The notes under the pieces are model-generated. The model saw only the letters and a list, made by a program, of their open reading frames with translations. It had not been told where the DNA came from and did no database searches. A stretch of DNA of 64,000 bases, from the IMG/VR virus record IMGVR_UViG_3300029305_011610, positions 13,395 through 77,394 of that record; one strand, given 5' to 3'. The translations under genes were made by a program, and so were the position numbers. How positions within the stretch are numbered: the stretch's first letter is position 1; each line of letters begins with the position of its first letter. Below are positions 9,070 through 60,800 of this stretch, one piece after another. The stretch comes from a virus. Taxonomy: Duplodnaviria > Heunggongvirae > Uroviricota > Caudoviricetes.

Positions 9070-9130
9070 AATACTTAGTAATTACGAATAAATTGTAGCA
9101 CCATGCAGCCAAAATGTCAACACAGTTTTA

Positions 9131-13362: not shown

Positions 13363-13515
13363 TTTTTAATATGGTAAGCAGAGACACCGATCAGTGCACC
13401 GCCGACAATTAGATTCAGGACACTAACAATACCTGCCCCTTGGCTTGAAGCCACAACAGTTCCCACTCCGGCCGCTACGATACCAAAGCCAAACATGGTT
13501 ACATCAAAATGCTTT

Positions 13516-17062: not shown

Positions 17063-17707
17063 TCAAATAAACTGCGAGATTACATCTTCAAAGGAATCAT
17101 TTATATCGAATGAAGGAACCCAATCTACAACAGTTGTTACCATCATGGTATCAACTTTTGCGGAGGTTATATCTGACTCGGAAATAAGCCGCTTCATCAT
17201 AACTTTTGCATTCTCCTCATTGTAAGCTCTAGACAGTGTATTTTCGATATCGTAGTAGTAAGGTGTCTGGTTACCCTCTTCATTGATCTTATAGGCAACA
17301 CCACGTTCCTTACGCTTGCGCTCCTTAATATCGAGCATATTTCTAATCGAGTTCGCTACTTCTTGTCTGAACTTATTAACTTCAAGCGCAGTGTCAATGT
17401 TCGTTTCGGCATTGGCTTTTGCAGCACTGATTGCCTCGCAAAGGCCACGCTTCTCACATACAAGAGCATCCAGCAAAAGCATCAGTTGGTCGGCAGTATA
17501 AGCGAATTCCTTTTCAACTACCTCTGTTAAGTCCGTAGCTTCTGGGTTTGCATCGTTACGCTTATGTACTTTTTCTTCGTTCATACAGATATTCTGAGTT
17601 ACAAGTCTCGTTTTAGCAACGGAGCCAATTCTGGACAGAAAATTCTGGTATCTGAACGCCTCTTTAAGATTCATAAGTATCATTCTCCTTATTATGTATT
17701 CTTTCAA
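17063..17707 (-). CDS. Hypothetical protein
   Basis: 214-aa ORF. Confidence 0.5.
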   Translation of the reverse strand: MKEYIIRRMILMNLKEAFRYQNFLSRIGSVAKTRLVTQNICMNEEKVHKRNDANPEATDLTEVVEKEFAYTADQLMLLLDALVCEKRGLCEAISAAKANAETNIDTALEVNKFRQEVANSIRNMLDIKERKRKERGVAYKINEEGNQTPYYYDIENTLSRAYNEENAKVMMKRLISESDITSAKVDTMMVTTVVDWVPSFDINDSFEDVISQFI

Positions 17708-18119
17708 TTTGAAAAACTAATTCATCTGGGTTTAACCCCGCTGCGATCTCAACAAACTCAGAATAGAAGAAATCAAGCAAATCTTCTCGTTCTTTGTCGT
17801 CGCCAGCTTCAAGAGCCGCTTTATAATCAATGACTGCTTGTTTTACAATCGCCAAACACAGGCTCTCCCACGCGTCATCAATGGCATACTCTTGATACTC
17901 TTCGTAGTATTCTAAACGTGAACTTACTCTATCCAAGACCATTTCATGTGTGCTGTATTTAACCCAGAGAAACCCTCCAGCATGTTTGGCCTTACCACTT
18001 ATGTGGTCTTGAATTGACGCTCTTGGGACACCTGTTTTCGCAGCAGCCTCCCTATCTGTACCAAAAACACCAATAAGCTCTCCGCTTCTTGTATATTGCG
18101 CTATTGCCACCTTAATCAC
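17664..18119 (-). CDS. DNA-binding protein with NUMOD-like HTH (the kind found in phage homing-endonuclease C-termini)
   Basis: IGVFGTDREAAAKTGVPRASIQDHISGKAKHAGGFLW motif. Confidence 0.45.
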   Translation of the reverse strand: MIKVAIAQYTRSGELIGVFGTDREAAAKTGVPRASIQDHISGKAKHAGGFLWVKYSTHEMVLDRVSSRLEYYEEYQEYAIDDAWESLCLAIVKQAVIDYKAALEAGDDKEREDLLDFFYSEFVEIAAGLNPDELVFQIERIHNKENDTYES

Positions 18120-34571: not shown

Positions 34572-34648
34572 TGGTGCGCCTCCTGGGGCTCGAACCCAGA
34601 ACCGTCCGGTTATGAGCCGGGTGCTCTAACCAATTGAGCTAAAGGCGC
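34572..34648 (-). tRNA. tRNA-Met/Ile2 (anticodon CAT), CCA encoded
   Basis: Manual fold: acceptor GCGCCTT/GAGGCGC, D-arm GCTC..GAGC, anticodon loop CTCATAA, T-arm CTGGG-TTCGAGC-CCCAG. Lacks initiator-type features, so an elongator or Ile2. Confidence 0.75.
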
Positions 34649-34661
34649 ATGTTAATCTGAG

Positions 34662-34883
34662 TTAATGCAACAACTTAACACGATTCGTCTCTTCATACTC
34701 TGTTAACACATCATTTGCTAACGCAACGGCATAACACGAATAGTATTTCTCGCAAGAACTTTCGCAATCATCAAGAGTCCATCCTTCGGGGATATCGCAT
34801 CCTGTTAGGTTTTTCATTTTAATATTTAGACCATTATCAATTACATCGTCAAACATCGACCTATCTATATTATATTGTTTCAT
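34662..34883 (-). CDS. Hypothetical protein
   Basis: 73-aa ORF. Several <60-aa ORFs with good RBSs follow at 34915–35823 on the minus strand. Confidence 0.4.
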   Translation of the reverse strand: MKQYNIDRSMFDDVIDNGLNIKMKNLTGCDIPEGWTLDDCESSCEKYYSCYAVALANDVLTEYEETNRVKLLH

Positions 34884-35920
34884 AGATATTCCCTCATTTA
34901 CGAAATCACTTTTATGTGGTTAATCTTCTTCATACAAATCAATGAAACAACGAACAGCACCGCAATAAGGACAAACATTTGTATCATTGACTTCATCGTA
35001 ATCAAATTCATCTTCGTGAAATTCTTCTTTGCAAATATCACATCTTACTCTATTAGTAGGTACTAACATAATTCATCACCTTAAAATCGTCATTTTATCC
35101 ACATTTCATTTGAATAAAATATCTAAAGCCTTTACTCCAATTAGGTTTCTCGCCCCACAAATGAACCTCATCTTTTGGCAGATTCTTCTTTGCCCAATTA
35201 TTAGCCTGTGATGCTGTCTTGAATCCAGACTTTACGGGAGTAAAGTTCTTCTCTTTATCAATTACACAAAACATAACCTTACCTCCAAAATAGTCATTTT
35301 AATCTCTATTTACAAAGCCATTTACTCTGTCTATCAGTCTATCAGCACCCTCTACTTGTGCAATTCCAACAAGCTCCTCTAAATCTTGTTTCAAATAGCA
35401 CATACAGTTCCAATCCATATAAGAACCTTGTACACAGTTCAAAATCTCTGTAATTTTTTCTTTAGATGTCATATTATCCACCTCTTAGAATTGTCATTTT
35501 ATAAACAGGCTATTCCATAAATCTTTAACCATGTTTCTTTTGGTTTCCTTTTTATATACAAAACACATCATAAGAAAAACAATAAACATGATTGTAATAG
35601 AAACAAGTACACCTTTCATACTTTTACCTCATAAAATTATCCTTTCATGCTCTATCGACTGTGTAATAGGATGTAAATTTGTATTTTTTACTTGATTCAT
35701 TCATATCTTTTGCGAAAGCTTCTGCCTCTTCTAATGTACCGAAAAAGTATGTTGCTCTATAATGCATATAGCTGCCCTTTTGAAAAAAATCATCGTACTG
35801 ATGAACCCTATATTTTTTGTCCATATCGCACCTTCATTTCAGTTTTTACAACACACCAAATCCATTAGCTACAAACCTAGCTACCATCGGCCTAGCCTTG
35901 CGGCTGCCGAAACCTCTCCT

Positions 35921-35990
35921 ACGTATTACGTACTAACTGCTTACGCAATTACTACGTATTATTTACTAACTGTTATACGCAATTTCTTCC
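35921..35990. repeat. Two direct repeats of about 34 bp
   Basis: ACGTATTACGTACTAACTGCTTACGCAATTACT / ACGTATTATTTACTAACTGTTATACGCAATTTCT, in the non-coding region before the tRNA array. Confidence 0.6.
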
Positions 35991-36188
35991 ACGCCTCACA
36001 AGACATGTAACCTCTGGATTTGATATGTCACGGCACTTCTCACCCAATCCTCTGGTGCGTTCAGTAGGCAGCCGTTTCCACAATCTGTCTTGGGTGACCA
36101 ATCTAATCAATCGCATCTTTGTCGCTACCGCACAGCGCGCAAGACAGGCCCGTTTAGTCTCATGGAGCTCTGTGGAACCATACATCTG

Positions 36189-36262
36189 GAGCGGATGACG
36201 GGAATCGAACCCGCGTACCCAGCTTGGAAGGCTGGTGTTCTACCATTGAACTACATCCGCAT
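36189..36262 (-). tRNA. tRNA-Gly (anticodon TCC), CCA encoded
   Basis: GCGGATGTAGTTCAATGGTAGAAC...anticodon loop CTTCCAA...GGGTTCGATTCCCGT...CTCCA. Confidence 0.8.
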
Positions 36263-36428
36263 TTGATGGTGGTTTTTAACCCGTGGGAAGTCAAAATGGG
36301 TGGTCAACCACCGTAACCATGGCATTGCGCTTTGTGCACACTAATGACGAAAGGTGTCAAACTATAGTAAGCGCAAAAGAACCTCAACGCTCTTCCACCT
36401 CGCAGATTGCCATTCTGCCTCGTGGGAC

Positions 36429-36504
36429 TGGTGCGCCAAGGGGGATTCGAACCCCCGACTAATGCCTTAAAAGGGCACTACTCTGCCAGCTGAGTTATTG
36501 GCGC
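36429..36504 (-). tRNA. tRNA-Lys (anticodon TTT), CCA encoded
   Basis: Anticodon arm GTGCC-CTTTTAA-GGCAT. T-arm GGGGG-TTCGAAT-CCCCC. Acceptor GCGCCAA/TTGGCGC. Confidence 0.8.
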
Positions 36505-36720
36505 ATGAAAGGAGGGCGATTTTTAACTCCGTGAGAGGCCAACCGCCGTAGCCTTTTACTTTGGATTGTTCTATACATTCCTACACACAGCACAGGCTTG
36601 AAGGTGAAAGACAACACAAAAAGAAAAGCCAAAGCTATGCAAGCCGAAATTGTTAAACGTGTAATGTCTGAACACCAAAAACCAATTCTATTTGTCTGAA
36701 AAAGAATTGGGAAGAAAATC

Positions 36721-36812
36721 TGGTACGGGCACAGAGACTCGAACTCTGATCAACCAATTATCTGTTGCTACGGAGTATAAACCCGTTGCTCTACCGATTG
36801 AGCTATACCCGC
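36721..36812 (-). tRNA. Atypical tRNA: anticodon loop TTTATAC (anticodon TAT, Ile?) with a 21-nt variable arm, CCA encoded
   Basis: Good acceptor (two G·U pairs), D-arm GCTC-AATCGGTA-GAGC, T-arm CAGAG-TTCGAGT-CTCTG. The type-II-length variable region (hairpin CAAC...GTTG) is unusual for a UAU anticodon. Confidence 0.5.
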
Positions 36813-36936
36813 ATGTTTGTGCTTCTTGGTTTTCTCAACTATGGAGAGGCTTGCCCATTGCCGGTTTATAGTCCCTTCCGCATTGGGACTTGAAAGGAAG
36901 ATTAAAAATGAATCAAATAAGTACCTATTTGATATA

Positions 36937-37011
36937 TGGCAGGGATGGCTGGATTCGAACCAGCGAATGACGGAGTCAAAGTCCGTTACCTTACCGCTTG
37001 GCTACACCCCT
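36937..37011 (-). tRNA. tRNA-Gln (anticodon TTG), CCA encoded
   Basis: AGGGGTGTAGCCAAGCGGTAAGG...ACGGA-CTTTGAC-TCCGT...GCTGG-TTCGAAT-CCAGC, typical bacterial Gln architecture. Confidence 0.8.
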
Positions 37012-37169
37012 ATAAAGGCGGCTACTCGCGCCGCCATGTGTGTTTTCTTTCGGATACTCCTACATCAGCCCGTGGTTATCACACAACCCCAAATCTAGCT
37101 CCGCAGGTCGTCGGAAGCTGATCCCGTCACCTGTTTCAACGCTACGATAACAGTCTTGCCGCTACCGCA

Positions 37170-37243
37170 TGGCATGGAAGCTCGGAATCGAACCGAAATT
37201 AATAGTTTTGGAGACTATCGTTTTACCATTAAACTACTCCCAC
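37170..37243 (-). tRNA. tRNA-Trp (anticodon CCA), CCA encoded
   Basis: Anticodon arm ATAGT-CTCCAAA-ACTAT, D-arm GTTT..AAAC, T-arm TTCGG-TTCGATT-CCGAG. The acceptor stem has two G·U pairs. Confidence 0.7.
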
Positions 37244-37342
37244 AAATGAAACAAATGGGCGGCAGAACCGACTATAGTCTACTCTTTAAAGCTAAGAGGA
37301 AAGCTTAACCTCACGCCAGAATCCCTAGCGCTACCCATTAGA

Positions 37343-37425
37343 AACTTTTTTATGGTGCCGGTAGCGAGACTCGAACTCGCACGAGTAAACACGAGCTCCT
37401 AAGACTCGCGTGTCTACCAATTCCA
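37343..37425 (-). tRNA. tRNA-Leu (anticodon TAG), type II, CCA encoded
   Basis: GCCGGTATGGTGGAATTGGTAGACAC...CGAGT-CTTAGGA-GCTCG, 11-nt variable arm, GCGAG-TTCGAGT-CTCGC. Confidence 0.8.
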
Positions 37426-37439
37426 CCATACCGGCGTGA

Positions 37440-37515
37440 TGGTCTGAGTAGAGGGATTCGAACCCCCGACATCCTGTTCCCAAAACAGGCGCGCTACCAA
37501 CTGCGCTATACCCAG
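37440..37515 (-). tRNA. tRNA-Pro (anticodon TGG), CCA encoded
   Basis: CCTGT-TTTGGGA-ACAGG anticodon arm. GGGGG-TTCGAAT-CCCTC T-arm. Confidence 0.8.
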
Positions 37516-37520
37516 ATATA

Positions 37521-37598
37521 TGGAGCTGGTTGTGGGGATCGAACCCACGACCTCCGGATTACAAATCCGGCGCTCTAACCAACTGCAGCTAAACCAGC
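37521..37598 (-). tRNA. tRNA-Thr (anticodon TGT), CCA encoded
   Basis: GCTGGTTTAGCTGCAGTTGGTTAGAGC...CCGGA-TTTGTAA-TCCGG...GTGGG-TTCGATC-CCCAC. Confidence 0.8.
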
Positions 37599-37828
37599 GT
37601 GCTTCTGCGAGCTTATGCACCCTTTTTGGCATCAGAACTCGTACCATTAGCTACGAATAACATAGGTATGGATTTACACCATACATAGTGTCTTATTGGA
37701 ATTGTGTGCGCACACGCCTCCAGATTCTCACACCTGAATCACTTGCGTCTACCTATTCCGCCACTACATTTCTTCGCAGCCGCAGGGAAGGCTTTACCTT
37801 CTCAAGCATAATTTAATCATCACTTACT

Positions 37829-37916
37829 TGGCGGAGCAGAGAGGGTTCGAACCTCCGCACGGATTACCGCCTATCTGATTAGCAATCAGACCTCTTCACC
37901 ACTTGAGTACTGCTCC
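37829..37916 (-). tRNA. tRNA-Ser (anticodon GCT), type II, CCA encoded
   Basis: GGAGCAGTACTCAAGTGGTGAAGAGG...TCTGA-TTGCTAA-TCAGA, long variable arm, GGAGG-TTCGAAC-CCTCT. Confidence 0.8.
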
Positions 37917-38067
37917 ATGCTGTGTCACGAATAATGTATACTATTCGGGACAAATTGGTATGAGTGGGCCATGGCCCGTCCATGTACCCACTCTGCTTTG
38001 TCGTCTCTTCCGACTTGTCAAGATCGGTTTTCATAATCTCACACTCCGCAAAGTGTAGCCCCTATTG

Positions 38068-38159
38068 TGGCGCGGATAGAGGGATTTGAACCCCCGCACG
38101 GTAGTTAGCCGCCTAGCGCTTTTCAAGAGCGCACTCTTCAACCGCTTGAGTATATCCGC
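38068..38159 (-). tRNA. tRNA-Ser (anticodon TGA), type II, CCA encoded
   Basis: GCGGATATACTCAAGCGGTTGAAGAG...GCGCT-CTTGAAA-AGCGC, long variable arm, T-loop TTCAAAT. Confidence 0.75.
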
Positions 38160-38188: not shown

Positions 38189-38590
38189 TTATGTATTAAA
38201 ATCACTGAATTGTTTGCTTTTCACTTCGAACTCTGCATATTTAATACCAACAGAAATTCCGTGCTTAGACATTATTTCATCCGACGGTATTAAATACATC
38301 CTATCGTCACCTGTTAATATAAATACATAGTCGCATGATTGATTATCGAATAATCTGACCTTGCCTTTACCAGACGAACCACCACAGTTTTTTAGCAACA
38401 CATAATATGATGTTTCGGAAGATTTATATCGACTCGTTTTAACCGAGACTCTCGATAATTTACCGTCATGATCTATTACTAAATCATACTTTTGAGTATC
38501 ATTCAAAGGAATGCTAACTGGGATAGAATGACTGGTAAAGAATTCAATAGCCCTACCTAAACCAATATTTCCTTGTAATGATTGATACAA
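38189..38590 (-). CDS. Hypothetical protein, possibly a PD-(D/E)XK-like nuclease
   Basis: YDLVIDHDGKLSRVSVKTSRY...DYVFILTGDDRMYLIP resembles a D...(D/E)xK nuclease core. Weak call. Confidence 0.4.
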   Translation of the reverse strand: MYQSLQGNIGLGRAIEFFTSHSIPVSIPLNDTQKYDLVIDHDGKLSRVSVKTSRYKSSETSYYVLLKNCGGSSGKGKVRLFDNQSCDYVFILTGDDRMYLIPSDEIMSKHGISVGIKYAEFEVKSKQFSDFNT

Positions 38591-38657: not shown

Positions 38658-38996
38658 TTAAGTAAGCCCTTCATCCGCTTGGGTATACCCGCAATTGATA
38701 TCTTCGATTTGCGCATTCATAGAATCGCGCTTTTGTAAATCGCTATGTTTGTAATTAATAGAAGGAGAATAATTGCCTTTCCTGCGCTTGCCTTTATTTC
38801 TCGTTTTAGCAGAGCACATATGGCATGAGCAATGGATCTTGTTCTTAGAATACTGATGGAAATTATCGTATGTAGGAGTGCCGTAGCCGATTTCCTTATC
38901 GATTCTGCGTCTTCGTGCCGCTTTTCTCTTAGCTACATCTCTGTAATAACCTCTATTTCTTTCCATAATGTTTCTCCTTTGTTGTTTAAGTATCAT
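38658..38996 (-). CDS. Basic Arg/Lys-rich protein with CSCHMC motif
   Basis: YYRDVAKRKAARRRRIDKEIGYG...CSCHMCSAKTRNKGKRRK. Possible nucleic-acid binding. Confidence 0.45.
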   Translation of the reverse strand: MILKQQRRNIMERNRGYYRDVAKRKAARRRRIDKEIGYGTPTYDNFHQYSKNKIHCSCHMCSAKTRNKGKRRKGNYSPSINYKHSDLQKRDSMNAQIEDINCGYTQADEGLT

Positions 38997-39039
38997 TAAG
39001 AATCCAAAATACCAATCCTGTAGCCTGAAGATCTAGTCA

Positions 39040-39195
39040 CCTGAAGAAGGCTGGTCGGTGGCAGCAAGAATGGCTACTTGCTGGGAAGGCAAGACGTATA
39101 AATTAAAGAAGGTAAACTCGGGGAAGACCTAGGAAAACGCAACTAGACCCGCGATGGCGGTCCCGGCGTCGACCTGTCACCTCATCTCTCTTTTA
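39040..39195. ncRNA. GC-rich structured non-coding element 1, ending at a conserved 30-nt motif
   Basis: About 60% GC island in AT-rich DNA with local hairpins (CAGCAAG...CTTGCTG). It is followed by the shared motif. No plausible ORF. Confidence 0.35.
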
Positions 39196-39199
39196 TTGA

Positions 39200-39232
39200 T
39201 CGAACCTTTACTCCCACTTACAGCGAGGAGCA
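39200..39232. repeat. Conserved motif TCGAACCTT(T/C)ACT(C/T)C(C/T)ACTTACAGCGAG(G/A)AGCA, copy R1
   Basis: Near-identical to 39433–39464. Its 3' 22 nt also occur at 33887–33908. Confidence 0.6.
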
Positions 39233-39299
39233 CACTAAAAAGTGTAATACATTACAAAATGATACTTTTATACACGTTATTCTATATACTTTATATGTG

Positions 39300-39430
39300 A
39301 GCACCAGGTTGGAAGCAAGCGCTCCGGGGGTTCGCAGGTGACTGGCGTGCGGTCTAGGAGGGGTTGCTGTCCTCCAATCTGGGCGGAGTCTCTTCGGCCG
39401 GGGTTTTCCCTGCGATAGGCTGGACTGTTG
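39300..39430. ncRNA. GC-rich structured non-coding element 2, ending at the same motif
   Basis: GCACCAGGTTGGAAGCAAGCGCTCCGGGGGTTCGCAGGTGACTGGCGTGCGG...CGGCCGGGG, about 62% GC. The track ORF 39277..39465 is implausible as coding. Confidence 0.35.
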
Positions 39431-39432
39431 GT

Positions 39433-39464
39433 CGAACCTTCACTTCTACTTACAGCGAGAAGCA
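39433..39464. repeat. Conserved motif copy R2
   Basis: TCGAACCTTCACTTCTACTTACAGCGAGAAGCA, immediately 3' of the RT stop. Confidence 0.6.
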
Positions 39465-39495
39465 TCGTATAAACGATAATGCTATATAGAATATT

Positions 39496-40647
39496 TTAAT
39501 ATTTTAGATCTGACTTGATTGCCGAAACAATATCAACTCCTACCTTTCTACTGATATGGTCTACCATCTTATCTATGGTTTCTTTTTCAATCATTCGGTA
39601 GTAGTTTCTATGCCCTTCAAGCACTCTTATATCTGTCTTTTCCCACGGCGTCCCATTTAATCTATCCAACGCATAGTTGGTTAGCATTGCTTGGAACTCC
39701 TTTTTCTTCTTATACCCAATCGTAATATCATTGTTGGAGTTAAGCATTACACCCAGATGTCTGTTTCGCCCAGCAGACGATCCGTAAGTAGTCTTTTCCT
39801 TCTTGATAATAAATGGGGCATTGAAGTAGCTAAGTGTATTTGTGATCAGCTGCTCAACTAACTTCACATCGAAGTCTCGCCTTGAAGAAATGATGAAGTC
39901 GTCTGCATATCTTGTATACACAAACGACTGGTTGTTGTAGTTATGAAGCATTTTAGTTAACGCATGGTCTACTGGGATCATCATTATATTTGTGATTAGC
40001 GGAGAGATCGGTGTTCCTTGAGGCAATCCGCCGTTCAAGAATGCAAGTTCAAGGGCAGTTTCGAGCTGCTGCCTACCCACAGTATACTTAACCACCTCTG
40101 AGAATGGAAAAATCATTGAAAACTGCTTCATCACAAATTCAAGCGTTGTGCTACCAAAGAAGTCAGACAAATCGAACTTGCCGAACCACTTACTCTCGTT
40201 CGCTTGATGTTTTTTGATCGCATCTATTGTGCTTCTCTTTTTCACATAAGCGAACGCAGAGGTGTGATACAGTGCATGAAAATCTTCTTCAAAGATAACT
40301 TTAAGAGTTCTCAATGCTTCCATCAGTTCGGGATTTGGTGCGTCGATTCTTCTATAACCTCTCCCGCTTTTCTTGGGCTGATAAAAAGTACGATACTGAT
40401 CCTGTCTCGGCCTGCTTCGCAACTCTTCTGTTTGCTGATTAAACACAACCAGCTTAGAGATAAGCAAGGGGATATTAACACTTGCCAGCATTTTATCGCT
40501 CACTTGCTCCACACAGTATGTTCTGGTAGATGTAAATCTGCCCGCAGAAGGTACAACCGGTTCGCGAATCGTGGCTGTTGCGAACAGCAACTCTTCCAGT
40601 GTCATCTCTCGAAGTACAGGAGCGTTTTTTACTGTTATGTATACCAT
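39496..40647 (-). CDS. Reverse transcriptase (retron/group-II-like RT domain, 383 aa)
   Basis: RT motifs GLPQGTPISPLITN (motif 4), VYTRYADDFIIS (YADD, motif 5), IKKEKTTYG...RHLGVMLN (motifs 6–7, retron VTG-like), and a distal HRNYYRMIE (thumb/X-like). Confidence 0.85.
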   Translation of the reverse strand: MVYITVKNAPVLREMTLEELLFATATIREPVVPSAGRFTSTRTYCVEQVSDKMLASVNIPLLISKLVVFNQQTEELRSRPRQDQYRTFYQPKKSGRGYRRIDAPNPELMEALRTLKVIFEEDFHALYHTSAFAYVKKRSTIDAIKKHQANESKWFGKFDLSDFFGSTTLEFVMKQFSMIFPFSEVVKYTVGRQQLETALELAFLNGGLPQGTPISPLITNIMMIPVDHALTKMLHNYNNQSFVYTRYADDFIISSRRDFDVKLVEQLITNTLSYFNAPFIIKKEKTTYGSSAGRNRHLGVMLNSNNDITIGYKKKKEFQAMLTNYALDRLNGTPWEKTDIRVLEGHRNYYRMIEKETIDKMVDHISRKVGVDIVSAIKSDLKY

Positions 40648-41389: not shown

Positions 41390-42067
41390 TTAAAATGCCA
41401 TCAGATCAAAAGCAAATGCATCCGCCAGAATCAGCTTTTTTAAGGGATTCCCATTCCAGAAGTTCATGAAATTGGATACGCCATAAGCGCACACAATTCG
41501 AACTGTAGGACAGACAGACAGGGTTACATTACACGCTGATACAGGTGTCTCTTCCTTGGCTTCGTCGTGGGAAAAATCCATAGAGTTCAGGAAGTCCTGT
41601 TTCATCTTGTAATCAGACCAGTCTGCAGCATAGTGCTGTGCATCCGTCAACCGGGTTCTGAAATCGAACATCGCCTTAACGAACGGGCTATCGAAATGCT
41701 TCTTCGCGATTTCCTTACGCAGTTCGATATTGTCTACGCACAGAAATACATAGCCAGACATCAGCTTACCCTTCCAACCTTCAGGCTTCAGCTCGATATC
41801 GTCTTTGATATCGGGATTGATTTCCATCAGGATGTCGAGAAGAGCCTCAACCTTCGGCTTCCCCACATCCTTTTGTCTGAACATCTGGTTAGCAAGATTA
41901 TGAGGCTCTACGATATCAAAATCCCAGAGAGTCATCTTTGTTACGCCGCAGCGTGCCAGGTTTTCTGCAACTGTGGAACCTACAGAACCACAGCCAACAA
42001 TATGAATTCTCGCAGTATCCTTTTCGGGCTGGAAAAATTCATAGCTTTTAGAAAGATCCATTGCCAT
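41390..42067 (-). CDS. E1-like ThiF/MoeB-family adenylyltransferase
   Basis: Rossmann nucleotide-binding motif IHIVGCGSVGSTVAENLARCGV...LWDFDIVEPHNLANQ. Confidence 0.75.
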   Translation of the reverse strand: MAMDLSKSYEFFQPEKDTARIHIVGCGSVGSTVAENLARCGVTKMTLWDFDIVEPHNLANQMFRQKDVGKPKVEALLDILMEINPDIKDDIELKPEGWKGKLMSGYVFLCVDNIELRKEIAKKHFDSPFVKAMFDFRTRLTDAQHYAADWSDYKMKQDFLNSMDFSHDEAKEETPVSACNVTLSVCPTVRIVCAYGVSNFMNFWNGNPLKKLILADAFAFDLMAF

Positions 42068-42069
42068 TA

Positions 42070-43038
42070 TCAGTATCCCCTTCCATATCCGTCGTACAGG
42101 CTACCATAGTAGTTATCGTAGTCATCATAAGGATCGTCGTATGCGTCCTTGCCAGCCCATCCAGAACCGATTGTCGTCTTGGGTTTGTCATTTCCGCTCT
42201 TACCTTTGCCCTTTCCCTTAGACTTGCCCTTACCTTCAGTATTCCCCGTAGACTCAGGCTTATTTGGAGAGGCATGTCCACCGTTTCCAAGAGGATTATA
42301 CGGCTGTCCTGCAACGGGAACTACGGAAGACTGCCCGCCGTAAGCAGGCGTGCCTTTATAGTTGTAATTTCCGCCACCAGTTCCGCCATTATATCCTCCG
42401 TAAACCTTATTCTTCACCTTTTCCTTTGCGTCGGTCAAGAACTTTCCCATATCGCCCCGAATGACGACGTCAATGTCCGCCGCTTCAAACAGGATATTCT
42501 TTTTCAGGTCGTAAATCTTGATATGCTTGTTAAAGGATTTGTTCCAAATCATAAAGATGTAGAACATGTCGTTTTCAAGCTGGTTCAGAATTTTTTCCTG
42601 ATGTGTGATATCAACCGCAGAAGGATATACACCCATATTCACATGAGAATGCCCCTGCATTCTGATGTTGAAGAAATCTTCGTCTTCAAACTGCATGAGC
42701 CACTTCTCATACTCTTCCTGATCGGTATTTACAGTAGCACCAGTTACTTCCTGTGGATACACGATAATATCGTAGATGATATATTCATCCCTTTCTTCAT
42801 CCTCACCACGCTTAGCAAGCCCATGCCATGCGACTTCCTTGTCAAAGCTACAAATCAGCATTGCCATCTTCAGCCAAGCTTCCTGCGTAAAATACACAGT
42901 TGCCTTTCGCTGATCGCATGTGAATGTCTTAGTGAAGTTGATTTTACCGTCAGCCATCTTGACAGTTCTGAGAGCTTCGAAAAGCTCGCGAGCACACTCT
43001 ACTCTGTACTCTTCGGTCATTTTGATAATCTTACTCAT
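42070..43038 (-). CDS. JAB/MPN (JAMM) metalloprotease-domain protein with Gly/Tyr/Lys-rich disordered tail
   Basis: HSHVNMGVYPSAVDITHQ matches the JAMM motif (HxH-x7-S-x2-D). C-terminal about 120 aa are low complexity (GGYNGGTGGGNYNYKG...KGKGKGKS...). Confidence 0.7.
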   Translation of the reverse strand: MSKIIKMTEEYRVECARELFEALRTVKMADGKINFTKTFTCDQRKATVYFTQEAWLKMAMLICSFDKEVAWHGLAKRGEDEERDEYIIYDIIVYPQEVTGATVNTDQEEYEKWLMQFEDEDFFNIRMQGHSHVNMGVYPSAVDITHQEKILNQLENDMFYIFMIWNKSFNKHIKIYDLKKNILFEAADIDVVIRGDMGKFLTDAKEKVKNKVYGGYNGGTGGGNYNYKGTPAYGGQSSVVPVAGQPYNPLGNGGHASPNKPESTGNTEGKGKSKGKGKGKSGNDKPKTTIGSGWAGKDAYDDPYDDYDNYYGSLYDGYGRGY

Positions 43039-43050
43039 ACGTTCCTCCTA

Positions 43051-44499
43051 TCATGTGGCTGCTTCTTGAGCTTCAAGCCATTCAATTGCTTCTACAGGTG
43101 TTACTACAGTTCCATCAGGAAGTTCAACGCACTTATTGCTGTAGTTAGTGTTATGTCCATACAGAATTGCCATAAATTCCCTCATAACAGTACTGTCGCC
43201 GAAGTTAATGCTCTTGCAGGAAGCGATACTCTGTTCAAGCGCTCCGATGTAATCATTATCTCTGAGGAGCTGATTAATTGCGGATGAATAGTTGCCCATG
43301 CATCCGTATCTATCGATGTGCGTATTGGGAAGATACCCGTCAAACTCACACTCAAAGGAATGATGCTGGTTGGGAAATACATTGCCATTCAGGCTGAATC
43401 TGTAGGACGCACACACTCTAATGCGAAGAGTCTGATCCACAAATACAGCATTCATGAACTTCTCCATCTTATCCTTAGCGATGTATCTGCTCATACCATC
43501 GTATACATAGCTACTCTTGTTATTGATCATTCTCTTTGCAGCTTCTTCGTCGAAGTATGTCAAATAATCCTTGACAGCGAATACCATACTGTCTTCGTTA
43601 ACATTTTCCAGAACCAGTCTTCTGTTGCACATGAAGTACTCCATGATTTCAGAGACCCCGCCCGTCTGTTCGACTTTAAGTTCGAGCCCGAGCAGTCTGG
43701 TTTGCAGATCATTTTTGATTCTGATCTGTTCTCCAATACTTCTGTTATAATAATTAATATTATTGATACAGGCCTGGATTTCATTGCGAACTCGTTCCTG
43801 CTCTCTCCGTTCGAACTTCGTTTCGAAACCGTCAAGCAGGTATTTAATTCTGAACTGACGCAGGTCAAATGTTTCAGACAGAGCCTTAATAGCGTTCATA
43901 TATGCGTCACTGGTCTTTTCTCTCATAGAATAAACCAGATTCATTTCAAGCTCAGAAACACCGTCCTCAGGCTTGAAGTACCAAGGGAGTACCGCGAAGA
44001 TGGAGCACTGAAGATAATGCAGCTTTCGATTGTCCATCTTAGATACAAAGATAACGGTGTGCTTCATCTCGGTATTCACAAAGCACAGAACCGGGAATGA
44101 CTTCTTGTAGAAAATCTTGATTTTCTCCAGATGACTCCAACCACTGAACTCGGACTCGAAGCTTTCTTCGAGAATCTTGAAATTCGCAGCTATATCAGCT
44201 TCGCCGCCGGTGATGTCATGGATATAAATTGTGCCATCAGTCAAAGGCATATCATCGCAAATCCTGCGAACCATGCTACCCCGATCGCCGCGCTCGATTG
44301 TATCCTTTTCAAATGTAATATTCGAAGACCCGAATCGAACCGTGATTGAATCCTCTTTAGGCATACGCTTATGAATCAGCGCTCTCAGAGATGCGACAAA
44401 AGAGTTATCGCTTCTGTATGTATCACCAGTAATGTTAGTGAAATAACTGTTTGCTACATCGTCCGTCAACGGAGTCGATGTAATGCTCTGTCTAAACAT
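43051..44499 (-). CDS. Large hypothetical protein co-located with the E1/JAB pair
   Basis: 482-aa ORF. No confident motif. Confidence 0.55.
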   Translation of the reverse strand: MFRQSITSTPLTDDVANSYFTNITGDTYRSDNSFVASLRALIHKRMPKEDSITVRFGSSNITFEKDTIERGDRGSMVRRICDDMPLTDGTIYIHDITGGEADIAANFKILEESFESEFSGWSHLEKIKIFYKKSFPVLCFVNTEMKHTVIFVSKMDNRKLHYLQCSIFAVLPWYFKPEDGVSELEMNLVYSMREKTSDAYMNAIKALSETFDLRQFRIKYLLDGFETKFERREQERVRNEIQACINNINYYNRSIGEQIRIKNDLQTRLLGLELKVEQTGGVSEIMEYFMCNRRLVLENVNEDSMVFAVKDYLTYFDEEAAKRMINNKSSYVYDGMSRYIAKDKMEKFMNAVFVDQTLRIRVCASYRFSLNGNVFPNQHHSFECEFDGYLPNTHIDRYGCMGNYSSAINQLLRDNDYIGALEQSIASCKSINFGDSTVMREFMAILYGHNTNYSNKCVELPDGTVVTPVEAIEWLEAQEAAT

Positions 44500-44529
44500 T
44501 AAAACACCCCTTGTCTTTTAATTGTAAGA

Positions 44530-44616
44530 TGGTGTCGGAGACGGGATTCGAACCCGCACGTGATCAATCACACCAGATTTTAAGTCTGGGTTGTCTCCCA
44601 GTTCCACCACTCCGAC
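44530..44616 (-). tRNA. tRNA-Leu (anticodon TAA), type II, CCA encoded
   Basis: GTCGGAG...CCAGA-CTTAAAA-TCTGG, variable-arm hairpin GTGATTGATCAC, GCGGG-TTCGAAT-CCCGT, acceptor CTCCGAC-A-CCA. Confidence 0.75.
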
Positions 44617-44641
44617 GTATGAATTTTTCATTACACATATT

Positions 44642-44670
44642 AAAAGGGGCGCATTTCTGCGCCCCTTTTG
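44642..44670. terminator. Strong bidirectional intrinsic terminator
   Basis: AAAAGGGGCGCA-TTTC-TGCGCCCCTTTT. Confidence 0.75.
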
Positions 44671-44687
44671 GGTATGTAACCGTGTTA

Positions 44688-44933
44688 TTAGGCGTTGTCA
44701 GCCTTAACCACGTTGAGCAGATAGCAGCGATCGTGGCCATCAGTGCCATCGTAGCCAAAATCCGCCAGGGTCTTGTTGATTTCGCCAGCCTTCAGGGAAG
44801 CGCCGTCCAGATGCATTACACCACGGTTGTAGTCAATGCCCAGGGTTTCCAGAATTTCACGGATGGTCACATGGGGTGCGAAATTTTCGGTCTTACGGTC
44901 AACGGTAGTACCAGCAGTTACTCTTACAAACAT
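44688..44933 (-). CDS. Small protein with possible beta-grasp (ThiS/MoaD-like) fold; GC-rich, enterobacterial-like codon usage
   Basis: MFVRVTAG..VTIREILETLGID...VMHLDGASL...KTLADFGYDG...LLNVVKADNA. Codons CTG/CGT/GGC/ACC dominate, unlike neighbours. No C-terminal GG. Confidence 0.45.
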   Translation of the reverse strand: MFVRVTAGTTVDRKTENFAPHVTIREILETLGIDYNRGVMHLDGASLKAGEINKTLADFGYDGTDGHDRCYLLNVVKADNA

Positions 44934-45030
44934 AAATCATATCTCCTTTAATAAATTATTTTTGATTTCTGATTGGATGACTTATTATGGGCGGGGCGGA
45001 ACAATCCGCCCCGGAGGGGCTCGGTTGCAA

Positions 45031-45426
45031 TTAGCCTACGGTAATTGCTTCCATGATCTGAGCCTTTTCTTCGGCAATCTCAGCGATCACCGCAGGCAGC
45101 TTCGCTTCCAGAGCGTTCAGCTTCATCAGAGCGCCGCCCAGCTTATCTGCTACGGCTTCCTTCATCTTGTCGCCGTCAATGCCGGGCATCAGCATAGTGA
45201 TTTCAGCGAGACCACCCTGATGAGAAGCGCGGCCAAACAGTGCGCCATTGCCATTCATACCACCGGAACCTTCAACCACGCCTACAGAGTACAGCAGCTC
45301 GCTGTTATCCTTGCCACCCATCAGCTTCAGAGCTTCGGGGCGATACTTTGCTACCAGCTTCAGGTTTTCCAGGGTTGCTGCGGAGGTGATTACGACTGCT
45401 TCACCATTGATCTTTACTTTTGCCAT
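45031..45426 (-). CDS. Ala/Gly/Leu/Lys-rich hypothetical protein; GC-rich, atypical codon usage
   Basis: 131-aa ORF MAKVKINGEAVVITSAATLENL...LMGG.... Same compositional island as 44688..44933. Confidence 0.45.
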   Translation of the reverse strand: MAKVKINGEAVVITSAATLENLKLVAKYRPEALKLMGGKDNSELLYSVGVVEGSGGMNGNGALFGRASHQGGLAEITMLMPGIDGDKMKEAVADKLGGALMKLNALEAKLPAVIAEIAEEKAQIMEAITVG

Positions 45427-51996: not shown

Positions 51997-52743
51997 TTAC
52001 TTCTTGATGGTCTTGTAGCCGTCGACGGTGTAACCCTTATTGGTCACGATTTTGTGGCAAATCTCAGCCAGATAACCAACCAGACGCTTATCGTTTGCGA
52101 CGGTCACAGTCAGAGCCTTGCGGGACTTACGGGAATACACGGACATCAGGAAATTGACATCGTGAGAAACCGCCTTATAGCCGTCCCCGAGCATAGCGGT
52201 GATGATAGACTGCAGAGTCTTGAGCAGATTGGTCTTGCTCGTGGGGGTCTTACCGAGATCAATCTGTCTTGCGATATCAGAAATCGCATAACTGTCGTTG
52301 ATACTCTTGGGGTTAATACCCAGATCGACCGCTTTCTGCACGGTCAAAAGCAGATTCAGCTTGCGGGCCATATTGAGCCAATTCTTATCGGCTCCGATAC
52401 CGCCGCAATGGTCGTGGAGCTTGATAAGGTCAATCTGAACCAGTCTGTCCTCGATACTGCGAACGGGGACGGGATTGTCGTCGGTAACGGGGGAATCCTT
52501 AACACAGATGGTGGTAAAGCTCAGCATTTCGATAGCCTTGAGCATGGGATTGGGAGCCGCCTTACACTCGTCAAAACACATCTTGCGAGTGATAGAGGTA
52601 TACTCATTGATTTTCTCGGACATAACCTTGTCAGCAGCAGTAGCGGCTTCCATGTTCTTCTCCTGAATCGCCTCATTATAGGCGATAACCTGTACCTCAA
52701 TTTCAGCCTTGAGGTCAGTCAGCTTCTTCAGATTTTCGTTCAT
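51997..52743 (-). CDS. Hypothetical protein (higher-GC codon usage)
   Basis: 248-aa ORF. C-ending codons are preferred, unlike the left 49 kb. Confidence 0.55.
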   Translation of the reverse strand: MNENLKKLTDLKAEIEVQVIAYNEAIQEKNMEAATAADKVMSEKINEYTSITRKMCFDECKAAPNPMLKAIEMLSFTTICVKDSPVTDDNPVPVRSIEDRLVQIDLIKLHDHCGGIGADKNWLNMARKLNLLLTVQKAVDLGINPKSINDSYAISDIARQIDLGKTPTSKTNLLKTLQSIITAMLGDGYKAVSHDVNFLMSVYSRKSRKALTVTVANDKRLVGYLAEICHKIVTNKGYTVDGYKTIKK

Positions 52744-58061: not shown

Positions 58062-60800
58062 TTGAGTAAACAACAAGCATGCCAGAAATACATATTCAAG
58101 TTACACAGCAGCAGATTAAAAGCAGCGAAGTGGAAGTTAACATTATCACTCCAAGAAGCCAGAAAAAACGATGAAATCATCGCATTAGCCGATAGCCAAG
58201 TACTTAGATGGCTGGATGAGCTGAATGGCGTCGTAGATTGTGAGCGCAGAGCTCGTGAAATCAAGTCTGAGATAAGAAAAATAAGAAAAGAGCCCAGCTC
58301 ACCTCAATACAGAAAAGCTCTCAAACAACAGTATGCGTTGTTAGACGCAGTACAGTTTAAGCCAGATTATATGTGCTTAATTATAGATAAAGAAAAAGAT
58401 TACCACCGTGCATGCAAAGGGTTTAGCATTAATGGGATTAGCTACAAACGATTGCTCGGCACAAACGGTGGCATCAAGAATAGTACCATCGTGTTTGTAA
58501 GTGAAAGACATATCGATGAGATCAGGCGGCGCATAGATAACGGAAGAGATATGACAGTGGAGCTTGTTCCGGCCAAGCTGGAGGCGTATAAGGCACTAAC
58601 CTGCAGTGCATCCATTCCGGTGTCCATGCCAAACGGAGTTCTTGTAGTACCGGATTGTGAAACTAGATTTAAATCAGACTTTATTTATCTGACAGACGAG
58701 TGTGACGGTGAACCATCCATGGAACTTAAAATAGATGAGATTGTAGAGTTAGATGAGTCCGACGGTTATGGTATCATGCTCCCCTCTTTAGCTCAGCGAT
58801 GGAGCGACGAGCTGCATTTGGATTACATGATGAGCGGGGCTAATACAAGATGCTCGTGGGAAAAGGGTATGGTATTCACATTCGATTTCATTGATTTCGC
58901 AGACAAGGTGGCAGGAAAATATATCGTAAAAGATGCTTGGGGAAATGATGTTGATATTAGAAACGTCGAGTTAGTATTAACAACCTCAATGTTAAAACTA
59001 TGGGATTCATATAGTAGTTGTGATGACTATCTACAGAACTGTATAGAAAATGGGTATTCATTTTGTATAACTAAGACTTGTCCAAAGGAATTGGAGCGGG
59101 AGAGAAATCTAAACTACCAGTTTATCCAGAGCTACGACCTGGATGATGACGATATTGAAGAATTGATTGCTCCAACGATGAACGAGATAAAAGACATTCT
59201 CGGAGGAGATTGGCGCAAGACAGTTCTTTATCTAAAGGGTGTAGGATTAAATGAAGATAATGTTGACGTACTTGATGATGACTGGATAAAGGCAATAATG
59301 ATAGAACCTAAGTTGATGGAAGATCCTTATATTAAGAATAAAGTGTATCAGCTGATCAAAAATAGAATCAATCAAGCTAAGGTGGGGGTGCTTAAAGTCC
59401 ACGGCAACTATTCCATCATTTCTGGAGATCCTTATTCTTTATGCCAGAGCATCTTTGGTCTAGAGGTTACTGGCTTACTTAAAGCGGGAGAAATACATAA
59501 TAAATACTGGTGTGATACTGGAGCCGATAAGCTAGTTTGTTTTAGAGCACCTATGACAGCTCATCCAAACATTAGAGCGGTTAAGCCAACTCGTGACCCA
59601 GACGCATTATATTGGTATCAGTACATGAATACATGCACGATTTTCAATTCTTGGGATACTGCAGCACACGCACTCAATGGTGCAGACAAGGACGGTGATC
59701 TGGTGATGCTTACAGATAATCCTGTATTAGTTCGTAAGCATAAAGAGATGCCTGCAATTATGTGTGCGCAGCGCAGAGCAGTTAAAAAAATCGTTACAGA
59801 AGAAGATGCAATCTACGCAAATATAGCCAGTTTCGGAAATGACATCGGCAAAACAACCAACTGGATAACATCCATGTTTGAAGTTCAGTCTCGTTATCCA
59901 AAAGAAAGTAAAGAGTATAAGACGCTTGAATATAGAATCATGTGTGGCCAATTATACCAACAGAACACGATAGATAAGGCAAAAGGTATCATAGCAAAGC
60001 CAATGCCGAAAGAGTGGCATGATTGGTTTGCAATCAATAACATGGATGCCGATGATGATACTAAGAATTTTTACAGATCGGTAGTTGCAGAAAAAAAGCC
60101 ATATTTTATGTGTTATATATATCCGGATTTAATGAAGTCCTATAAAGACTACACTACATCAGTTAGCCGTATTTGTATGCAAAAATTTAATAAGACAATC
60201 GATGAGATTAACCAGACCCCTTTTGAAAAGCTTACAGAAGAAGAAGTCTCATATGTGAGCTATGTAAAAGCAAAGTTTCCCGTCGGAATGGGAGACTGTG
60301 TAATGAACAAAATTTGTAGACGATTTGAAGATGAGTTTGATAGTTGCATTAGAAACGCAAGAATGAAAGACGACTTTGATTACTCTATTATGAAGAGCGG
60401 CGCTGATATCCCTTATAATCGACATCGTTACTCTGCGCTTAAGCTTTGCTACGCGGAGTACGCTAAATCTGTGAAACAAAAAATGTCCGTTATGTCTAGA
60501 CAGCGAAAGGATAATCCAGAAATATCTGATTGTTTGCGAATACTCAGAGATGGATTCTCCCGCGATTGCGACCTAATCTGCAGCAACGAAGTAGAATTAA
60601 CTGACATGTTGATGGATATATGCTATCGCAAAAGCTACGCCAAAGATCTTATGTGGTCTACAAGGTCAGAACAGATAATAAAGAATCTGTTACTACATAA
60701 TGGGGAAAAAATTCACATTCCAACACAAGACGAGAACGGTGATGTGAAATACTGTGGAAAGAAATTTATCATTATTACAAAGGATATGGAGACTATTTGA
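58062..60800 (+). CDS. Two-barrel (double-psi beta-barrel) RNA polymerase, YonO / cellular-RdRP-like, 912 aa
   Basis: KLVCFRAPMTAHPNIRAVKP...NSWDTAAHALNGADKDGDLVMLTDNP. The DxDGD metal-binding motif sits in the context seen in RdRP/YonO-type single-chain RNAPs and the multisubunit RNAP beta-prime NADFDGD. Confidence 0.65.
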   Translation: MSKQQACQKYIFKLHSSRLKAAKWKLTLSLQEARKNDEIIALADSQVLRWLDELNGVVDCERRAREIKSEIRKIRKEPSSPQYRKALKQQYALLDAVQFKPDYMCLIIDKEKDYHRACKGFSINGISYKRLLGTNGGIKNSTIVFVSERHIDEIRRRIDNGRDMTVELVPAKLEAYKALTCSASIPVSMPNGVLVVPDCETRFKSDFIYLTDECDGEPSMELKIDEIVELDESDGYGIMLPSLAQRWSDELHLDYMMSGANTRCSWEKGMVFTFDFIDFADKVAGKYIVKDAWGNDVDIRNVELVLTTSMLKLWDSYSSCDDYLQNCIENGYSFCITKTCPKELERERNLNYQFIQSYDLDDDDIEELIAPTMNEIKDILGGDWRKTVLYLKGVGLNEDNVDVLDDDWIKAIMIEPKLMEDPYIKNKVYQLIKNRINQAKVGVLKVHGNYSIISGDPYSLCQSIFGLEVTGLLKAGEIHNKYWCDTGADKLVCFRAPMTAHPNIRAVKPTRDPDALYWYQYMNTCTIFNSWDTAAHALNGADKDGDLVMLTDNPVLVRKHKEMPAIMCAQRRAVKKIVTEEDAIYANIASFGNDIGKTTNWITSMFEVQSRYPKESKEYKTLEYRIMCGQLYQQNTIDKAKGIIAKPMPKEWHDWFAINNMDADDDTKNFYRSVVAEKKPYFMCYIYPDLMKSYKDYTTSVSRICMQKFNKTIDEINQTPFEKLTEEEVSYVSYVKAKFPVGMGDCVMNKICRRFEDEFDSCIRNARMKDDFDYSIMKSGADIPYNRHRYSALKLCYAEYAKSVKQKMSVMSRQRKDNPEISDCLRILRDGFSRDCDLICSNEVELTDMLMDICYRKSYAKDLMWSTRSEQIIKNLLLHNGEKIHIPTQDENGDVKYCGKKFIIITKDMETI

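Follow-up and report, generated by a model that had tools for sequence, protein, structure and literature searches.

A candidate conjugation pathway for an alanine-ended ubiquitin-like modifier, encoded next to a retron in phages of gut Clostridia

Why would a tailed phage encode an E1-like adenylating enzyme directly beside a JAMM metalloprotease? This question is raised by a stretch of 64,000 nucleotides (nt) from a Caudoviricetes genome (IMG/VR record IMGVR_UViG_3300029305_011610, positions 13,395 to 77,394), called the window below; its numbering is used throughout. An earlier reading of the letters alone, referred to here as the sequence-only reading, had noticed this pair together with a 482-residue partner and two small genes, and had considered either protein conjugation or a thiolation relay, each built on a ubiquitin-like protein (Ubl). 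Our analysis inclines somewhat towards the first, namely a phage-borne E1/E2-like/JAB pathway with an Ala-terminated modifier. The block p131-Ubl-p482-JAB-E1-RT, where RT is a reverse transcriptase, was found in some 200 loci of phages and prophages from gut Clostridia. The retron-type RT, two non-coding RNA (ncRNA) units and a tRNA-Leu(UAA) gene had all been overlooked before, and that the cassette is bound to a retron changes the nature of the locus. The open reading frames (ORFs) of the E1, JAB, 482-, 81- and 131-residue genes lie where the sequence-only reading had placed them. The cassette genes are all on the minus strand:

45031-45426, minus strand: p131, 131 residues
44688-44933, minus strand: Ubl, 81 residues
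44530-44616, minus strand: tRNA-Leu(UAA) (ARAGORN; Rfam tRNA, 47.6 bits)
43051-44499, minus strand: p482, 482 residues, candidate E2-like protein
42070-43038, minus strand: JAMM/JAB metalloprotease by its motif, 322 residues
41390-42067, minus strand: E1-like adenylating enzyme of the ThiF/MoeB/Uba5 type, 225 residues
40666-41376, minus strand: p236, variable gene between E1 and RT, without family match
39496-40647, minus strand: retron-type RT, 383 residues

We are confident, as far as a structural model allows, that the 81-residue protein has a ubiquitin-like beta-grasp fold. Its AlphaFold model, computed with 41 homologues as input, reached a predicted local distance difference test score (pLDDT) of 92.7 and showed a bb-a-bb...b topology, with strands at residues 3-8, 13-18, 39-42 and 69-75 and a helix at 24-31. 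The top 50 matches of a Foldseek search against the PDB were all ubiquitin, SUMO, NEDD8 or other ubiquitin-like domains (template modelling scores 0.45-0.68), which bears out the beta-grasp fold suspected earlier. Sequence comparisons were silent: Pfam, NCBIfam, PHROGs and PADLOC gave no match, a profile run against PDB sequences gave nothing meaningful, and scanning the family member by member against NCBIfam with E values up to 10 returned noise only.

The last six residues of the model are flexible or disordered (pLDDT about 43). In the family alignment the C-terminal V-K-x-D-N-A was invariant, and the protein of the window ends in ...KADNA; as already remarked in the sequence-only reading, there is no terminal GG. 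Among 88 distinct Ubl domains from 149 loci, 54 carried the tail VVKADNA and all 88 had an [N/G/S]-A terminus. The last residue was always Ala, so that the Gly C-terminus (usually Gly-Gly) of Ubl modifiers was replaced in all variants. A second, GG-terminated Ubl, which it had been proposed to look for elsewhere in the genome, was searched for across the 64-kb window and not found there. The protein stops at the tail Ala in 47 of the 88 domains, continues for one to four extra residues in 33 and has a longer run-on in eight. Six of these eight are in-frame fusions of the Ubl to p131 with the junction ...NA/A... (slash at the boundary); three further fusions in the protein library had the same junction, and the fusion ORFs were read directly in the loci L066 (4145-4810) and L067. 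Such a pattern, with a conserved flexible tail and varying residues behind it, is characteristic of C-termini that are exposed by proteolysis and then used chemically. The closest precedent comes from BubAB, a Ubl-E2 fusion that the JAB domain of BubCD cuts after the terminal Gly (PMC11601596). By analogy, the Ubl-p131 fusions would parallel the BubAB precursor.

The protease for such a cut may be encoded in the same block. The JAMM motif E...HxHx7Sx2D was complete in the 322-residue protein (E68, H130-S-H132, S140 and D143), and these five residues were invariant in 20 homologues. From its motif, the protein looks like an active JAMM/JAB metalloprotease, in agreement with the pairing of E1 and JAMM protease on which the sequence-only reading was built. 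No Pfam match was obtained; PADLOC JAB models matched at 3e-4 and the best hit of a profile against the PDB was Rpn11, weakly, at 0.016. The protease domain extends from residue 1 to about 210 and is followed by a G/Y/K-rich low-complexity tail making up the C-terminal third. This tail had been noticed before and was seen in the homologues as well. Within it (residues about 215-322, 42070-42430), a motif IG(A/S)GWxGK was conserved across tails that could not be aligned otherwise, and the end of the tail carried an acidic and aromatic patch. It could serve as a docking peptide.

The 225-residue E1 was the best conserved protein of the block, with 72% mean column identity, and matched Pfam ThiF at 7.4e-26. 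It fell under every NCBIfam equivalog cut-off, the best being the ThiF model PRK08644 with 85.7 bits vs 159, and remained far under the cut-offs of all curated ThiF, MoeB, TcdA and PRTRC models. Its best PDB matches were the active adenylation domains of Uba1, Uba6 and Uba7, followed by Uba5, MoeB, MccB, TcdA, ThiF and Cap2. Across 20 family members, GCGSVG, D49, D51, N57, K72, D112, R117 and C179 (in TPVSAC) were invariant. Neither CxxC zinc motifs nor a rhodanese domain occurred in these 20 proteins; a check for the zinc site, which the sequence-only reading had recommended, came back without a CxxC pair in the alignment. That reading had also set against itself the case of a plain ThiF in a phage that lacks any beta-grasp or E2-like protein. 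Judged by this condition, the idea stands unrefuted.

The 482-residue protein, p482, is in our view probably E2-like, an assignment made with moderate confidence. It has 752 homologues and no Pfam domain. Its AlphaFold model (pLDDT 88.7) consists of an N-terminal alpha/beta domain, a 54-residue helix (225-278) and a C-terminal alpha/beta domain in which a helix, two strands, a two-helix insert, two strands, a loop and helices follow one another. In the model, this is the order of elements of UBC/RWD domains. Moderate matches to UBC/RWD folds were indeed obtained, the bacterial E2 BilB included; the Spc24/Spc25 globular domains, Knl1, the RWD domain of GCN2 and FANCL were also named in this context. 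P391-N392-x-H394-x5-C400 was invariant in 34 plus 14 sequences and lies in the loop after the fourth strand. The spacing from N392 to C400 is as in canonical E2s with their HPN...C active site, judged on the UBE2D2 sequence. The His preceding the Pro of the HPN motif is absent in p482 and present in the distant relatives L147 and L149 (HPH...C). Aligned by hhalign to four canonical E2 sequences, the C-terminal domain found its best local match at the PN...C motif, below significance. These model matches and the invariant P-N-x7-C motif make the earlier suggestion of an E2-like partner plausible. Profile searches added nothing: p482 had no match in Pfam, NCBIfam, PHROGs or PADLOC, nothing meaningful among PDB sequences, and a member-by-member Pfam scan of the C-terminal domain with E values up to 10 returned noise only. 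Foldseek with the whole model gave no significant match in the PDB. A terminal uridylyltransferase was considered on the grounds of weak Foldseek matches and rejected, a conserved DxD or GS nucleotidyltransferase motif being absent.

A further component, p131, belongs to a family of 1367 clusters at 50% identity, and had no match in Pfam, NCBIfam, PHROG, PADLOC or the PDB. The sequence-only reading had taken it for a second possible beta-grasp protein; this was not borne out, the hhalign probability against the Ubl family being 0.9%, which is not significant. A comparison with the four canonical E2 sequences was not significant either. Four of the six core proteins of the block are without a family in Pfam, NCBIfam and PHROGs. 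p131 adjoins the Ubl in nearly all loci and, in some, is fused in frame to its C-terminus. Cleavage at the NA/A junction would leave p131 with an N-terminal Ala, as would removal of Met from the free-standing protein (MAK...). Some genomes have two copies of the p131-Ubl pair. In L002, the copies lie at 9120-9831 and 17269-17980; there, and likewise in L003 and L004, the p131 proteins of both copies are identical and form a direct repeat flanking p482-JAB-E1-RT. Tandem copies were seen in L111 (611-2206) and L112 (4885-6478).

The GC content at third codon positions (GC3) was 0.58 for p131 and 0.56 for the Ubl, vs a window mean of 0.40 (standard deviation 0.08; 43 window genes), and was also raised in E1, JAB and p482 (0.49-0.50). 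The shift of the two small genes is genuine but moderate (z about 2). Of the earlier claim that their codon usage sets them apart, the compositional part stands and the "E. coli-like" part was not demonstrated. The two small genes are separated from the others by the tRNA gene. A tRNA gene lies in this spacer in many related phages as well; it is Leu-UAA, the usual kind, in L005 (8111-8197), L009 (9890-9975), L014 (9885-9970) and L023 (3594-3678), and is a tRNA-Tyr in L002 (9883-9975) and a tRNA-Met in L039 (9900-9973). Processing of the tRNA might split the p131-Ubl message, with its higher GC3, from that of the enzyme genes. A scan for promoters and terminators yielded sites no more frequent than chance.

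What is the retron doing next to these genes? The RT matched Pfam RVT_1 at 5e-20, PADLOC RT_II-A at 6e-45 and the NCBIfam model retron_St85_RT at 2e-50, with 171.7 bits vs a cut-off of 235; it stays under the cut-offs of all curated retron types. Named retron RTs made up 12 of its 13 best PDB matches, led by Ec83 at 5e-22 and followed by Ec78, Ec67 and Ec86. On these matches it belongs to the retron clade of RTs.

Most related loci have about 250-430 nt of non-coding sequence immediately before the RT. Its ends are formed by inverted repeats of 8-13 bp with the core TGTAA[C/T] ... [G/A]TTACA, and the RT starts about 30 nt beyond the 3' arm. Of 58 distinct upstream regions, 52 had an inverted repeat of 8 nt or more, mostly at the same position and with the 5' arm followed by a G. 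In 17 diverse sequences, the terminal helix was paired to 100% with compensatory changes in 6 of 13 pairs, vs 21-35% pairing in slid controls; its outermost pairs are paired by construction, since the ends were picked by a repeat finder, but a C-G/U-A switch at the inner end is not. The msr hairpin after the terminal helix showed compensatory changes in 6 of 9 pairs when 17 relatives were aligned, and is common to these and the window. The window and its close relative L005 have no spacer before the RT and carry two ncRNA units directly after it:

38997-39495: non-coding DNA, about 500 nt
39278-39493, minus strand: retron-type ncRNA (msr/msd-like) unit 1
38988-39267, minus strand: retron-type ncRNA unit 2
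38658-38996, minus strand: 112-residue ORF
38189-38590, minus strand: PD-(D/E)XK-like gene
34572-38159, minus strand: tRNA array of eleven genes

A perfect inverted repeat encloses each unit; it measures 11 nt in unit 1, whose 5' arm is followed by a G, and 10 nt in unit 2. Both units share a 65-nt 5' part as a direct repeat with 74% identity, and a 28-nt motif common to them occurs at these two sites of the window only, where none is expected by chance. Folding of the whole 499-nt spacer was uninformative (z = -1.15), and an Rfam scan of the locus returned two tRNAs only, with no retron or other ncRNA family. At the level of sequence, RT and ncRNA together qualify as a retron, and production of multicopy single-stranded DNA (msDNA) is predicted. 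The start codon of the 112-residue ORF lies inside the 3' inverted-repeat arm of unit 2; the encoded protein is basic and Cys-rich and is 85% identical in L005.

The association of retron and cassette was not peculiar to the window. The order p131-Ubl-p482-JAB-E1-(variable gene or ncRNA)-RT was found in 68 of 69 loci collected via p482 from IMG/VR, GenBank and contigs. It was also found in most of 80 loci collected via E1 among GTDB species representatives, in a scan that gave 333 relatives in all. The GTDB loci came almost all from metagenome-assembled genomes (MAGs) of gut Clostridia (Oscillospiraceae, Acutalibacteraceae, Lachnospiraceae, Christensenellaceae and termite-gut Defluviitaleaceae). 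Many of the contigs measured about 100-130 kb, several 180-430 kb, and two were from isolates. Together with the integrase genes of the window, the longer contigs and the isolates suggest temperate phages. Prophage carriers include Clostridiales Family XIII bacterium PM5-7 (L131), Ruminococcaceae bacterium OttesenSCG-928-L11 (L108) and, by the source name attached to P0025, Acutalibacter muris. Anchoring on the DNA ligase, meant to show whether the cassette belongs to the core of the lineage, yielded 3 loci only. Megablast of the locus against GenBank phages gave no match, and tblastn gave a single unannotated faecal phage contig, MT835544.1. Conversely, when loci were anchored on the RT, E1, JAB and p482 were present in 70 of 79; of the remaining nine, eight were cut by a contig end and one had its cassette at a distance of 6 kb. 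Where divergence is greatest, with p482 22-28% identical, the six genes were almost the sole matches to the window within 10 kb. That the block is retained although the genes around it change speaks for a single functional unit. In the window, p482, JAB, E1, p236 and RT are separated by gaps of 2-18 nt only (2 nt between JAB and E1, 13-18 nt between E1, p236 and RT) and therefore read as one operon.

Distant JAB-E1 relatives were found in MAGs of the candidate phyla radiation (CPR) and of Gammaproteobacteria (L147, 7839-11389; L148, 7791-10687; L149, 507-4778). Their order is a coiled-coil protein with HPHx7C[LQ]GN, JAB, E1 and Ubl, with no RT. The stretch of the coiled-coil protein after this motif aligns without gaps to p482 (hhalign E = 0.0019). 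The Ubl of L149 ends in ...KVRGN and has a ParB-like gene next to it.

From these data, the following pathway may be proposed. The 81-residue protein would be the modifier, made at mature length, slightly extended or fused to p131. The JAMM protease would trim it after ...K-A-D-N-A and free the carboxylate of the Ala. The minimal, homodimer-type E1 would adenylate this Ala81 carboxylate and, to judge from its conserved residues, may hold the Ubl on Cys179. From there the Ubl would pass to Cys400 in the E2-like C-terminal domain of p482, whose N-terminal domain and long helix might serve oligomerisation or the choice of target. It would finally be attached to an amine of the target, with p131 as main substrate or obligate cofactor, and the JAB protease may also reverse the conjugation. 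The retron would be part of the same unit, either as a sensor or regulator, modelled on the msDNA-RT complexes that control bacterial retron effectors, or as a target itself. The system probably has a role in conflict between phage and host or between phages, or in a developmental step of the phage. A functional link between retron and Ubl cassette is a tentative proposal, which we would not yet call likely. More doubtful still is the full picture of a new retron system, borne by a very large group of gut Clostridia phages as a near-universal module, in which a complete Ubl cascade is the effector arm and the msDNA-RT complex gates or directs conjugation, through an Asn-Ala terminus, to p131, host or rival-phage proteins.

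Several observations weigh against this pathway. An Asn-Ala terminus is not known from any Ubl conjugation system. In all 20 E1 family members, the Arg of the NxxRQ ATP motif, conserved in the other E1s compared, is Asn (N60), which may mean an altered nucleotide handling. C179 is the presumed catalytic cysteine of the E1, and the C-terminal half of the enzyme did not align to solved E1s. p131 is without a recognisable fold. As to the retron, the 6-10 kb of sequence beyond the cassette E1 contain no RT in L094 and L145, and all loci come from related phages, so that shared ancestry could explain part of the linkage.

These last points lead to the alternative that survives best, possible in our eyes though rather unlikely: Ubl module and retron would be independent and neighbours only through the conserved phage backbone. 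The retron would then be self-contained, for instance a device for superinfection exclusion whose effector is p236 or another gene. Besides the origin of all loci from one broad phage group and the two cassettes without adjacent RT, this is favoured by L112 and L146, where the RT lies 6-7 kb downstream of E1, by the distant relatives L147-L149, which have the E1-JAB pair and no RT, and by the variable p236, a gene that many loci have between E1 and the RT or its ncRNA. However, RT and cassette are adjacent in about 98% of complete loci, even where almost no flanking genes match, every RT-anchored locus that can be judged has the cassette, and gaps of 13-18 nt separate the genes in the window. 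Moreover, p236 occurs at 25-59% identity in many loci and is absent from many others, and therefore cannot be the general effector. It had no match in Pfam, NCBIfam, PHROGs or PADLOC. Where it is missing, the slot between E1 and the RT or its ncRNA holds other genes or none.

The conjugation pathway has furthermore to be weighed against a sulfur carrier, which we consider improbable. Here the E1 would convert the Ubl to a thiocarboxylate with sulfur from the phage cysteine desulfurase, the JAB would only mature the carrier, and p131 would be a MoaE-like synthase passing the sulfur to a cofactor or a nucleic acid, perhaps tRNA or msDNA. The top NCBIfam matches of the E1 are indeed ThiF and MoeB, and a Ubl with a partner of about 130-150 residues, sometimes fused, is reminiscent of MoaD-MoaE. 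Iyer et al. 2006 (PMC1779556) have proposed that JAB proteases mature sulfur carriers made as fusions or with extensions. The window also holds many tRNAs and, as the sequence-only reading had stated, a cysteine-desulfurase-like gene (Aminotran_5, 11188-12375, 6.5e-79) and a PP-loop gene (PAPS_reduct, 13516-14526). These two genes, however, lie about 27-30 kb from the cassette and outside the conserved block. Not one of the 88 Ubl variants ends in GG, the E1 has neither a rhodanese domain nor a CxxC zinc site and stays far under the ThiF and MoeB equivalog cut-offs, and no sulfurtransferase is linked to it. p131 showed no similarity to MoaE, ThiG or CysM in Pfam and PDB sequence searches, and an E2-like p482 with an invariant PNx7C would be left unexplained. 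The complete Ubl-dependent thiolation relay that had been thought conceivable for this phage finds no support in the tails, the E1 and the distance of the sulfur genes, and thiolation ranks as less likely than conjugation. The two sulfur genes belong to a minus-strand cluster (11188-15431) of a desulfurase-like, a PAPS-reductase-like PP-loop and a FolD-like methylene-tetrahydrofolate dehydrogenase/cyclohydrolase gene, which is a separate metabolic or modification module. L002 and L004 likewise have a PAPS_reduct gene, at a distance of about 10 kb from the cassette.

Very improbable is a role in assembly or structure without conjugation, in which Ubl and p131 would be abundant or chaperone-like proteins, the JAB would merely process them, and E1 and p482 would be unrelated. 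There is a precedent: processing was proposed for the tail-assembly Ubl of lambda (TAPI) and the JAB domain of protein K, and Ubl-JAB pairs occur in phage tail modules (PMC1779556). p131 and Ubl have the highest GC3 of the cassette, compatible with high expression, and the block behaves as a core, syntenic part of the phage and not as a variable island. Against this stand its neighbours, which are replication, tRNA and nucleotide-metabolism genes and not structural genes, the E1 as the best conserved protein with invariant catalytic residues, and the Ubl tail, whose conservation up to the final residue speaks for chemistry at the carboxylate. The weakest alternative, a MccB/PaaA-like E1 that modifies the Asp-Asn-Ala end of the Ubl to a succinimide or nucleotide adduct and so makes a protein-borne small-molecule warhead, can draw on matches of the E1 profile to PDB entries of MccB (2.5e-12) and PaaA (4.6e-9) and on a conserved Asn beside the Ubl terminus that presumably recalls the C-terminal Asn of MccA, but it is hardly credible, as true E1 adenylation domains score better, the penultimate Ubl residue can be Gly or Ser, the substrate would be a folded 81-residue ubiquitin-like domain, and an E2-like protein and a JAB are present.

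Two further genes of the window deserve mention. A 912-residue protein encoded on the plus strand (58062-60800) matches Pfam RdRP (PF05183) at 4e-13, which suggests that an RNA polymerase of this family is supplied by the phage itself. The gene is one of the few common to the most diverged cassette-bearing contigs, and homologues follow directly after the RT in L066 (9148-10857) and L067 (14716-16128). A 248-residue gene on the minus strand (51997-52743) has no Pfam match and the top GC3 of the window (0.64, z = 3.1); it is conserved in the diverged relatives L054 and L057.

To our knowledge, prokaryotic Ubl conjugation (type II CBASS, the cyclic-oligonucleotide-based antiphage signalling system, as well as Bil and Bub) has so far been described as antiphage machinery of bacteria. 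With the proposed conjugation pathway, the same logic would stand on the side of the phage, in a lineage common in the guts of humans and animals. The Ala-ended modifier breaks the Gly-terminus rule of the Ubl systems compared, and the natural Ubl-p131 fusions would offer a ready-made JAB substrate. The strict retron association points either to a new class of retron effector or to a new use of retrons by phages; if true, the sensing of reverse-transcribed DNA would be linked to protein tagging.

How does the cassette compare with known systems? It lacks defining features of Bil, Bub, CBASS Cap2/Cap3, PRTRC and carriers of the ThiS/MoaD type. With the Ubl sulfur carriers (ThiS-ThiF, MoaD-MoeB/MoaE, CysO-MoeZ-Mec, QbsE-QbsC-QbsD and TtuB-TtuC-TtuD) it shares a beta-grasp protein, an adenylating enzyme of the ThiF family and, in some of these systems, a JAB that trims the carrier. 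It differs from them by the missing GG, rhodanese, zinc site and linked sulfurtransferase, and by its E2-like protein. PRTRC and similar mobile E1-JAB-Ubl cassettes likewise have a short E1, a JAB, a small Ubl and uncharacterised partners, and the ParB gene next to the Ubl of L149 adds to the likeness. Membership was nevertheless rejected: PRTRC_ThiF scored 28.8 bits vs 144.75, no other PRTRC model matched, and the window cassette has no ParB. L147-L149 were ruled out as PRTRC on their NCBIfam scores, too. Type II CBASS (Cap2/Cap3) is marked by an E2-E1 fusion and by a CD-NTase that is itself conjugated at its C-terminus. The PADLOC E1-E2 models match the cassette E1 in the Rossmann core only (residues 18-88), and no CD-NTase was detected by Pfam or PADLOC among ten proteins scanned in and around the cassette.

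Type I Bub (6E.1), composed of the Ubl-E2 fusion BubAB, the JAB-E1 fusion BubCD and BubE, comes closer. In both cases the Ubl can be an N-terminal fusion that needs a JAB cut at its last residue, the E1 is of the minimal homodimer type, and JAB and E1 are adjacent. The fusion partner in Bub, however, is an E2 of about 133 residues with a UBC fold and a catalytic Ser, whereas here it is p131, without UBC signal. Bub forms oxyesters on Tyr and Ser and has a Gly terminus, whereas in our cassette cysteines are invariant in E1 and p482 and the terminus is Ala. DUF6527/BubE had no Pfam match among the ten proteins.

Among retrons, the RT clade of Ec83, Ec78 and Sen2/St85 is nearest. The inverted repeats a1/a2, the G after the 5' arm, the covarying msr hairpins and the adjacent accessory genes are all as in retrons. 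Unlike in these, the ncRNA of the window is duplicated and placed after the RT, and the carrier is a phage genome of at least 130 kb. Neither a retron with E1, JAB or Ubl neighbours nor a phage-encoded Ubl cascade was reported in the literature searched.

By analogy of its parts, the cassette would work most like Bil, the bacterial antiphage ubiquitination system with separate Ubl (BilA), E2 (BilB), JAB (BilC) and E1 (BilD), although no similarity to Bil proteins was detectable at the level of sequence. BilD is an E1 with an inactive and an active adenylation domain in tandem and a cysteine domain (PMC11601596), whereas the cassette E1 is a single adenylation domain of 225 residues and hence not an E1 of the Bil kind. 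The Ubl of Bil ends in Gly, that of the cassette in Asn-Ala. Bil is found in bacterial defence islands, the cassette on phages and prophages, where it comes with an E2-like protein of 482 residues that has an extra N-terminal domain and a long helix, and with p131 and a retron in addition.

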